From NCBI RefSeq assembly GCF_055900595.2, contig NZ_CM148325.1: a stretch of DNA of 64,000 bases, one strand, 5' to 3'. Under the pieces are notes generated by a model. It was not told the origin of the DNA. It did not search any database and saw only the letters and a list, made by a program, of their open reading frames with translations. Shown here one piece after another: positions 12,863 through 13,059 of the stretch (positions within the stretch are counted from its first letter, which is position 1; each line of letters begins with the position of its first letter). Position numbers and translations under genes: made by a program.

Positions 12863-13059
12863 TGAGATTGCTGTTAAAAGGGCTCGTCGGAATGGCGCTG
12901 GTCTGGCTTGTTATTGGTTTCGGGATGGAGTTATTTTTTCTCGCCGATCGGGTTCATCCGGCATTAAGAGTAATCGTTGGCCTGGGGATGTTATTCCTGA
13001 TGATAATGATTGCGGGTGGTATGTGCGGTTCTCTTCTGTCACGAAAGAAAACATCATGA
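12863..13059 (+). CDS. Small hydrophobic membrane protein (about 65 aa, two predicted TM helices), GTG start after AGAAGGAGAGG
   Basis: ORF 12775-13059 trimmed to a GTG that follows a strong Shine-Dalgarno; product VRLLLKGLVGMALVWLVIGFGMELFFLADR…LGMLFLMIMIAGGMCGSLLSRKK. No family assignment. Confidence 0.4.

Follow-up and report, generated by a model that had tools for sequence, protein, structure and literature searches.

ORF65, a small predicted membrane protein gene common to Escherichia coli tRNA islands with exchangeable cassettes and Goslar-like jumbo phages

We analysed a stretch of 64,000 nucleotides from contig NZ_CM148325.1 (NCBI RefSeq assembly GCF_055900595.2), called the window below, with the focus on a 65-codon open reading frame (ORF65) directly downstream of a WYL-regulated three-gene operon. 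ORF65 is a real gene under purifying selection, and according to the sequence comparisons it is a self-contained module that stays fixed while the cassette on its left and the gene on its right are exchanged. The same comparisons show that it does not serve the operon as a dedicated partner, be it for immunity, as antitoxin or as trigger; the family to which it belongs appears confined to one family of E. coli tRNA-associated islands (extending from an outer-membrane protein gene to an integrase gene, at pheV or selC) and to Goslar-like jumbo phages. The gene as such was already known, being annotated as hypothetical protein WP_001238008.1; its sequence family is otherwise undescribed. The best overall explanation we can offer, held at somewhat less than an even chance, is an autonomous phage-type inner-membrane envelope protein that forms a module of the island.

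ORF65 runs on the plus strand from a GTG at 12862-12864 through 65 codons to a TGA stop at 13057-13059, and its product reads MRLLLKGLVGMALVWLVIGFGMELFFLADRVHPALRVIVGLGMLFLMIMIAGGMCGSLLSRKKTS. Of 5,426 complete E. coli genomes, 534 contain ORF65 DNA, 496 of these at a coverage of at least 80%. The 60 protein variants recovered are nearly all full length, disrupted forms being rare singletons. For the analysis of selection, the island copies were sorted into four clades: A (this window), B (leo-type islands with a phosphoethanolamine transferase gene downstream), C (MBOAT-type) and D (leo-type without the transferase). Using our own Nei-Gojobori script, we obtained ratios of non-synonymous to synonymous substitution rates (dN/dS) of 0.21-0.33 in all six comparisons of these clades, with a synonymous excess in the binomial test (p 0.0001-0.005). 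Among three Goslar-like phage lineages, the range was 0.18-0.25, again with a synonymous excess in all three comparisons. When clades A and B were compared in the alternative frames, the ratios were 0.64-0.94 and 1.3-2.1. The neighbouring transferase has a dN/dS of 0.11-0.18, and its dN is about 6 times below that of ORF65; together with the selection signal, this identifies ORF65 as a fast-evolving yet selected gene. Protein identity amounts to 63-86% among the island clades and to about 45% with the phage copies (synonymous sites being saturated at this distance), with frame and length kept throughout. Chimeric A/B alleles point to recombination within ORF65. A first-pass annotation of the window, made from the letters alone, had left the conservation of this frame in related loci to be checked; it is seen in the 534 genomes, in the purifying selection and in the phage homologues.

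In the window, the gene order of the island is outer-membrane beta-barrel protein, WYL/HTH regulator, 359-aa protein, 523-aa protein, YkgJ protein, ORF65, phosphoethanolamine transferase, TPR protein (minus strand) and tyrosine integrase (minus strand). We found the slot between the outer-membrane protein gene and ORF65 (8398-12861 in the window; 2474-7000, 1261-7001 and 2420-7000 in loci L006, L023 and L024, respectively) to be filled in three unrelated ways, namely by the WYL regulator with PDC-M09A-like, PDC-M40B-like and YkgJ proteins, by leoCBA (Eleos), or by an MBOAT-DUF459-SGNH/Ape1_N set with a 114-aa and a 407-aa protein. To the right of ORF65 homologues lies either the phosphoethanolamine transferase gene or a gene for a 160-aa secreted protein. 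In the tia-leoCBA islands of the enterotoxigenic E. coli (ETEC) type, leoC-leoB-leoA replaces the WYL and three-gene cassette and is followed by an 82%-identical ORF65 homologue and the transferase. A BLAST comparison of the window with the leo-type island returned a single block of exactly 12862-16656 (93.7% identity), which extends through the transferase, the TPR gene and the integrase; on the left side, only the outer-membrane protein gene is common to both (74%). Clades C and D were found by profile search. Type C islands have the order outer-membrane protein, MBOAT, DUF459, SGNH/Ape1_N, 114-aa protein, 407-aa protein, ORF65 homologue and transferase, and homology with the window again sets in at the ORF65 start. 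In type D, leoCBA is followed by the ORF65 homologue and the gene for the 160-aa secreted protein, which is unrelated to the transferase. Types D and B have leoBA and the small ORF in common, with homology ending about 11 nt 5' of the ORF stop; between type D and the window, ORF65 is the only sequence common to both in the interval that separates the flanking outer-membrane protein gene from the integrase end (74% identity).

The first-pass annotation had proposed ORF65 as an immunity or antitoxin partner of the upstream operon, or as its trigger. This proposal is contradicted by an inter-island homology that starts at the ORF65 start codon and leaves the operon out, by the genome counts (385 genomes with the three-gene operon versus 534 with ORF65, and thus at least 149 that carry ORF65 without the operon), and by members of the same family behind the leoCBA and MBOAT cassettes and in phages. 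PADLOC gave no match for ORF65, while its two larger neighbours match PDC-M09A and PDC-M40B; LeoA and LeoBC are included in PADLOC as well. Under the name Eleos, LeoA and LeoBC have been published as a two-gene system against phages (10.1101/2022.12.12.520048), so that two of the three slot fillings are known or candidate anti-phage defence systems.

The boundary of homology also bears on the start codon. The first-pass annotation had correctly recognised a GTG-initiated frame of 65 codons, placing its start one base late, at 12863; a frame opened there contains eight stops, whereas the frame opened at 12862 yields the protein reported at the time. Its claim of a strong Shine-Dalgarno sequence agrees with AAGGAG at 12850-12855, 6 nt 5' of the GTG; the letters directly preceding this GTG are AAGGAGAGGATC. 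The Shine-Dalgarno-like stretch (12850-12859) belongs to the cassette and lies outside the block conserved between island types. In the other island types, the upstream sequences differ and carry GAGG or GAGGG at a distance of 9 nt (in type C, GAAGGG instead), which means that a purine-rich ribosome-binding motif is present in four out of four unrelated sequences 5' of ORF65 homologues. Type C islands have an ATG at the codon that matches the GTG of ORF65. The start at 12862 is thus supported by the exact onset of inter-island homology, by the type C ATG and by the ribosome-binding motif in four unrelated contexts. From the stop of the YkgJ-family gene (12722), the ORF65 start is separated by 139 nt. 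No significant RNA structure was predicted for this spacer (12720-12865, z -0.77), our signal scan revealed no consensus promoter or terminator on the plus strand around ORF65 in the window, and an Rfam scan of positions 12400-13400 gave zero matches.

The two hydrophobic helices and the basic tail (...SLLSRKKTS) attributed to the protein in the first-pass annotation were both recovered. Kyte-Doolittle hydropathy delimits hydrophobic stretches at residues 2-28 and 31-60, and AlphaFold2 (from an alignment of 25 sequences) places helices at residues 2-31 and 33-63 with a mean predicted local distance difference test score (pLDDT) of 69; the grand average of hydropathy (GRAVY) is 1.25. Glu23 in helix 1 is invariant in island types A to C, replaced by Lys in type D, and missing from the phage copies. 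In the loop between the helices, D29, P33 and R36 are kept in at least 90% of the 25 aligned E. coli and phage sequences. The C-terminal SRKKTS is invariant in 24 aligned type A and B sequences; the tail is FSQRKT in type C and FLRKRQK in type D, and basic in the phage copies as well (e.g. NVGKRK). With a charge of +2 at the N-terminus, +3 or +4 in the tail and a net negative loop in the phage homologues, the positive-inside rule would place both termini of ORF65 in the cytoplasm. The protein is thus predicted to be a 65-residue helical hairpin of the inner membrane.

Relatives outside the islands are few. A word-indexed search returned E. coli proteins only, and a HMMER profile search of 1.84 billion representatives added one non-E. 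coli match, a 62-aa protein (E 1.8e-4) on a contig of 904 bp whose DNA is 73% identical to that of Escherichia phage Goslar. Over 49 aa, ORF65 shares 49% identity with Goslar gp101 (YP_009820786.1, hypothetical protein, 63 aa), which was also the sole match in a tblastn search that had ORF65 as query and covered 2.3 Gb of phage genomes (E 1e-4). About 20 variants of gp101 were found on Goslar-like contigs of 237-248 kb, with E-values that are inflated because phage sequences were included in the query profile. ORF65 exhibits the traits of the family formed with gp101: 63-69 aa, two helices, an N-terminal LL[KR]G, W15, a D..P..R loop, GL..FL in helix 2 and a basic C-terminus. In Goslar, the endolysin gene gp098 follows gp101 on the same strand at a distance of about 930 bp, an order kept in a second phage; the endolysin is of the SleB type with an N-terminal membrane or signal segment, and the neighbours of gp101 in the phage encode other small membrane or secreted proteins. 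A second link concerns Goslar gp103, of which a 51%-identical homologue is encoded 1.5 kb upstream of the ORF65 homologue in type C islands; the gp103 family is likewise confined to Goslar-type phages and type C islands. Between gp102 and gp101, the Goslar sequence (L019, 3938-4108) contains an unannotated 56-aa ORF that is kept in two other Goslar-like phages. With a weakly hydrophobic, Gly/Ser/Asn-rich helix 1 and a hydrophobic helix 2, its product is more pinholin-like than gp101.

According to the explanation we favour, ORF65 would act alone in the inner membrane. Such autonomy is suggested by its purifying selection in the company of varied neighbours and by the homologue in a virulent phage. 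The island copy would represent a retained or domesticated phage membrane function, placed beside a slot that holds a known or candidate anti-phage system in two of its three known fillings. As to the kind of function, we tentatively put lysis control first, in the sense of a holin- or antiholin-like protein, because the endolysin neighbourhood of the phage homologue, its sole functional context, points in this direction. Exclusion of an infecting phage, by analogy with Imm or gp15, comes next and is already an unlikely option. Bolder, and more doubtful still, is the idea that ORF65 and the gp103-like periplasmic protein of type C islands might together constitute a host-held jumbo-phage envelope or lysis-control module directed against Goslar-type phages (through exclusion or mistimed lysis), or, as the mirror image, that the phages captured an island gene in order to neutralise membrane-acting defences such as Eleos.

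Several observations weigh against the favoured explanation, above all in its lysis variant. The first-pass annotation had also mentioned holin-like triggers; the location of the phage homologue in an endolysin neighbourhood gives this suggestion a weak lead, whereas no holin family is matched and no endolysin is found among the genes annotated around ORF65 in the E. coli loci examined. The phage neighbourhood itself is a loose one, as one or two genes and 0.5-0.9 kb lie between the homologues in Goslar-like phages and the endolysin gene downstream, and neither the Goslar structure preprint nor a review of nucleus-forming phages speaks of Goslar lysis genes. In the literature searched, neither experimentally defined lysis genes of Goslar nor exclusion genes of Goslar-type phages are described. 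Among the Pfam holin families, there was no match at E<0.01, the best being Phage_holin_3_6 with E 0.37 for one phage copy. With 8 residues, the tail falls short of what is usual in holins, a dual-start motif is lacking (the next Met is residue 11), and helix 1 is strongly hydrophobic, unlike the weakly hydrophobic helix of the signal-anchor-release (SAR) type. A holin expressed constitutively would be toxic. More generally, nothing significant was obtained for ORF65 or its phage homologues in Pfam, NCBIfam, PADLOC or PHROGs (marginal PHROGs matches led only to families without known function), and none of the annotated exclusion families in PHROGs or Pfam matches ORF65. We found no paper that names the peptide, its accession or Goslar gp101. 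Finally, ORF65 lies directly upstream of the transferase gene in 466 genomes, which makes a role linked to this enzyme possible.

This last point leads to the rival explanation that survives best, which we nevertheless regard as unlikely: ORF65 might be an accessory subunit, a regulator or a translational leader of the downstream transferase, the two forming an operon in which the small protein would bind the membrane domain of the enzyme or couple its translation. A gap of 134 nt (121 nt in deletion alleles) separates the two genes, which share a strand. Of 545 matching genomes, 466 have them contiguous, and a transferase 5' end that lacks even the 3' part of ORF65 is hardly ever found. Moreover, the pair recurs behind each of three different cassettes. 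However, in type D islands an intact homologue (63% identical, dN/dS 0.21-0.33 versus the other clades) is followed by a gene other than the transferase, and around the phage homologues the approximately 10 kb examined contain no transferase gene. No comparable ORF precedes the nearest relatives of the transferase, in Leminorella (63%) and Hafnia (49%), so we rejected the idea that the pairing is conserved beyond E. coli. As to precedents, BcsF is encoded next to the transferase BcsG, although without contacting it directly (PMC11470070), and the parallel therefore covers gene adjacency only. In the LeoABC paper, the annotated H10407 locus shows the transferase as 'orf5', with no label for the small ORF in the passages retrieved (PMC4159319).

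For coupled translation, the sequence between the two genes was considered. Neither potential start of the transferase is preceded by a Shine-Dalgarno sequence, be it the ATG at 13125 annotated by the Prokaryotic Genome Annotation Pipeline (PGAP; 557 aa) or an ATG in the same frame at 13194 (534 aa, MKINLPF...); in the supplement of the LeoABC paper, the gene bears the remark 'no RBS ?' (PMC4159319), which refers to the ribosome-binding site. The true start is probably the ATG at 13194, favoured by the alignment of the N-terminus with the Leminorella and Hafnia relatives and by an E. coli allele (L008) in which the upstream frame is closed. From the ORF65 stop to the transferase, a chain of short ORFs can be drawn, opened by an ATGA at which an 18-aa ORF (13056-13112) overlaps the ORF65 stop and continued by a 31-aa ORF (13109-13204) whose stop overlaps the ATG at 13194. 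A 13-nt insertion or deletion defines two allele classes, both of which retain an 18-codon ORF ending 53 nt after the ORF65 stop; in the deletion class, this stop overlaps the ATG of the long transferase form (TAATG). We set these overlapping frames aside as real coupling ORFs, any coupling being uncertain, since their residues change freely (mostly non-synonymous change by inspection) and the 13-nt difference shifts the linking frame. The nucleotide conservation in 13056-13204 is better explained by a stem-loop at 13073-13092 that occurs in island types A, B and C; its substitutions keep pairing via G-U on the plus strand only. In type B, a T-rich run follows directly 3' of the stem-loop, giving it a terminator-like appearance that speaks against an operon with the transferase; in this window, the 13-nt insertion separates the stem-loop from the T-run.

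An improbable alternative is that ORF65 serves no function at all and represents a hitch-hiking remnant, or a stretch of shared sequence that acts as a recombination anchor for cassette exchange. The island boundaries do match the ends of ORF65 and mosaic alleles exist, its dN exceeds that of the transferase about 6-fold, and within E. coli the gene is limited to one island family. In the ATCC 8739 lineage, ORF65 together with about 80 nt is a lone survivor, 100% identical, between IS1 and IS5 (ISKpn26) and beside a type II Zorya system. On the other side of the balance, synonymous changes are in excess in six of six E. coli clade comparisons and in three of three phage comparisons, and frame and length have been maintained over all the divergence described above, with disrupted alleles as rare singletons.

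Still less probable is the immunity, antitoxin or triggered membrane effector of the WYL-regulated operon already discussed. ORF65 lies on the same strand as the operon, at a distance of 139 nt with no consensus terminator or promoter between, which would allow co-transcription by read-through; candidate defence families (PDC-M09A and PDC-M40B) are recognised among the upstream proteins; and in every island type ORF65 sits at the 3' end of the left cassette, followed by the stem-loop. Against this stand the two other unrelated cassettes and the phages in which the family recurs, the homology that excludes the operon by beginning at the ORF65 start codon, and the at least 149 genomes in which ORF65 is present and the operon absent. 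In addition, PADLOC has no model for ORF65, and the published description of Eleos as LeoA plus LeoBC comprises two genes (10.1101/2022.12.12.520048). A type I toxin-like membrane toxin under the control of an antisense RNA is hardly credible: ORF65 is small and very hydrophobic, and promoter-like (13141-13112) and terminator-like (13075-13058) sites exist on the minus strand, but such sites are no commoner than in shuffled sequence, no Rfam family is matched, the protein has two helices instead of one, its strong ribosome-binding site lies outside any significant structure, and the family occurs in a virulent phage.

The coordinates of ORF65, its parts and its neighbours are listed in Table 1. 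The region is an island at the tRNA-Phe gene (17814-17889, minus strand), with a G+C content of 0.37-0.50 over most of its length. PGAP names of the two large cassette proteins vary between genomes and include 'chemotaxis protein', 'ATP--cob(I)alamin adenosyltransferase' and 'hypothetical protein'. Strain MS8345 has the operon in two copies, one of them frameshifted. The transferase scores under the cut-offs of all named EptA, EptB, CptA and MCR models. In some genomes, an outer-membrane protein gene directly followed by a different phosphoethanolamine transferase gene, truncated by IS3, is found a few kb away (L003, 11821-13077), which suggests a recurring pairing of these two gene types. We had considered the L003 fragment as a transferase locus without ORF65 and rejected it, as the transferase is an unrelated one.

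Table 1. ORF65 and surrounding features in the window
Feature	Position	Strand	Basis or remark
ORF65 coding sequence	12862..13059	+	RefSeq WP_001238008.1, hypothetical protein (PGAP)
Shine-Dalgarno-like stretch AAGGAGAGGA	12850..12859	+	AAGGAG ending 6 nt ahead of GTG
Spacer specific to the WYL-type cassette	12723..12861	+	No homology to the equivalent leo-type or MBOAT-type spacers
Predicted transmembrane helix 1, about residues 7-28, LVGMALVWLVIGFGMELFFLA	12880..12945	+	Hydropathy, AlphaFold2, alignments
Loop DRVHPALR, predicted periplasmic	12946..12969	+	Alignments; topology by positive-inside rule
Predicted transmembrane helix 2, about residues 37-57	12970..13032	+	Hydropathy, AlphaFold2
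Basic C-terminal tail SLLSRKKTS	13033..13056	+	Alignments
GC-rich stem-loop GCCGTTACATTTGTGGCGGC	13073..13092	+	14 nt after ORF65 stop; z-scores -1.6 to -2.7
Phosphoethanolamine transferase (Sulfatase domain)	13194..14798	+	Neighbour, not a proven partner
Outer-membrane beta-barrel protein gene	7593-8396		
Left-hand variable cassette	8817..12722	+	Neighbour of ORF65
WYL/HTH regulator	8817-9713	+	
359-aa PDC-M09A-like protein	9762-10841	+	PADLOC candidate match
523-aa PDC-M40B-like protein	10888-12459	+	PADLOC candidate match
YkgJ/CxxCxxCC protein, 88 aa	12456-12722	+	Last gene of the three-gene operon

Taken alone, ORF65 is of modest interest, as one more uncharacterised small membrane protein that was already annotated as hypothetical. 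Its separation from the adjoining candidate defence operon matters to anyone who intends to clone this operon or ETEC-type Eleos. Furthermore, the gene marks the fixed right edge of a slot in pheV and selC islands in which Eleos, candidate defence and envelope-modification cassettes interchange, and can be used for the discovery of further cassettes. Since ORF65 and a second orphan gene are common only to these islands and to Goslar-type jumbo phages, they offer a cheap entry to the lysis or exclusion genes of such phages. The compartments that enclose the genomes of nucleus-forming phages have been described as a shield against DNA-sensing defences. Should the idea of a host-held or phage-captured module be true, ORF65 would be a gene of host-phage conflict at the level of the membrane, effective where phages are shielded from these defences.

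Among known small membrane proteins, BcsF resembles ORF65 by its location. It is a membrane peptide of about 63 aa from bcsEFG, encoded beside the phosphoethanolamine transferase BcsG, and consists of a single helix that recruits the cytosolic BcsE (PMC11470070). ORF65, equally small and equally next to a transferase gene, has two helices and matches no Pfam family, that of BcsF included. The Hok, TisB, Ldr and Ibs families of type I toxins comprise small, hydrophobic peptides of the inner membrane, each with a single helix and an antisense RNA; ORF65 is likewise small and hydrophobic, whereas it has two helices and no antisense signals above chance. A closer likeness exists to class II holins or pinholins such as S21-68 of phage 21, which are small proteins that cross the membrane twice, keep both ends in the cytoplasm and have a positive C-terminus. 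Size, number of helices, basic C-terminus and the topology predicted from charge agree with ORF65. However, helix 1 of pinholins is rich in Gly, Ala and Ser and of the SAR type, i.e. able to leave the membrane, whereas that of ORF65 is strongly hydrophobic; and pinholins have a long charged C-terminal domain and a dual start, in place of which ORF65 has its 8-residue tail (+3 or +4) and a single start.

The nearest counterpart is Goslar gp101 itself, with the same size range of 63-69 aa, two helices, a basic tail and the pattern LL[KR]G...W...D..P..R...GL..FL. Unlike ORF65, gp101 and its kin lack Glu23, have a loop that is two residues shorter, and belong to virulent nucleus-forming phages, where they are encoded near an endolysin gene. 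T4 Imm and HK97 gp15 are tiny two-helix proteins of the inner membrane that confer superinfection exclusion, act alone and occur in phages as well as among the 'moron' genes of prophages and islands. A likeness of ORF65 to proteins of the Imm/gp15 type, drawn here from their description, would explain why the ORF65 family persists with any neighbour, beside a slot in which anti-phage systems are frequent.

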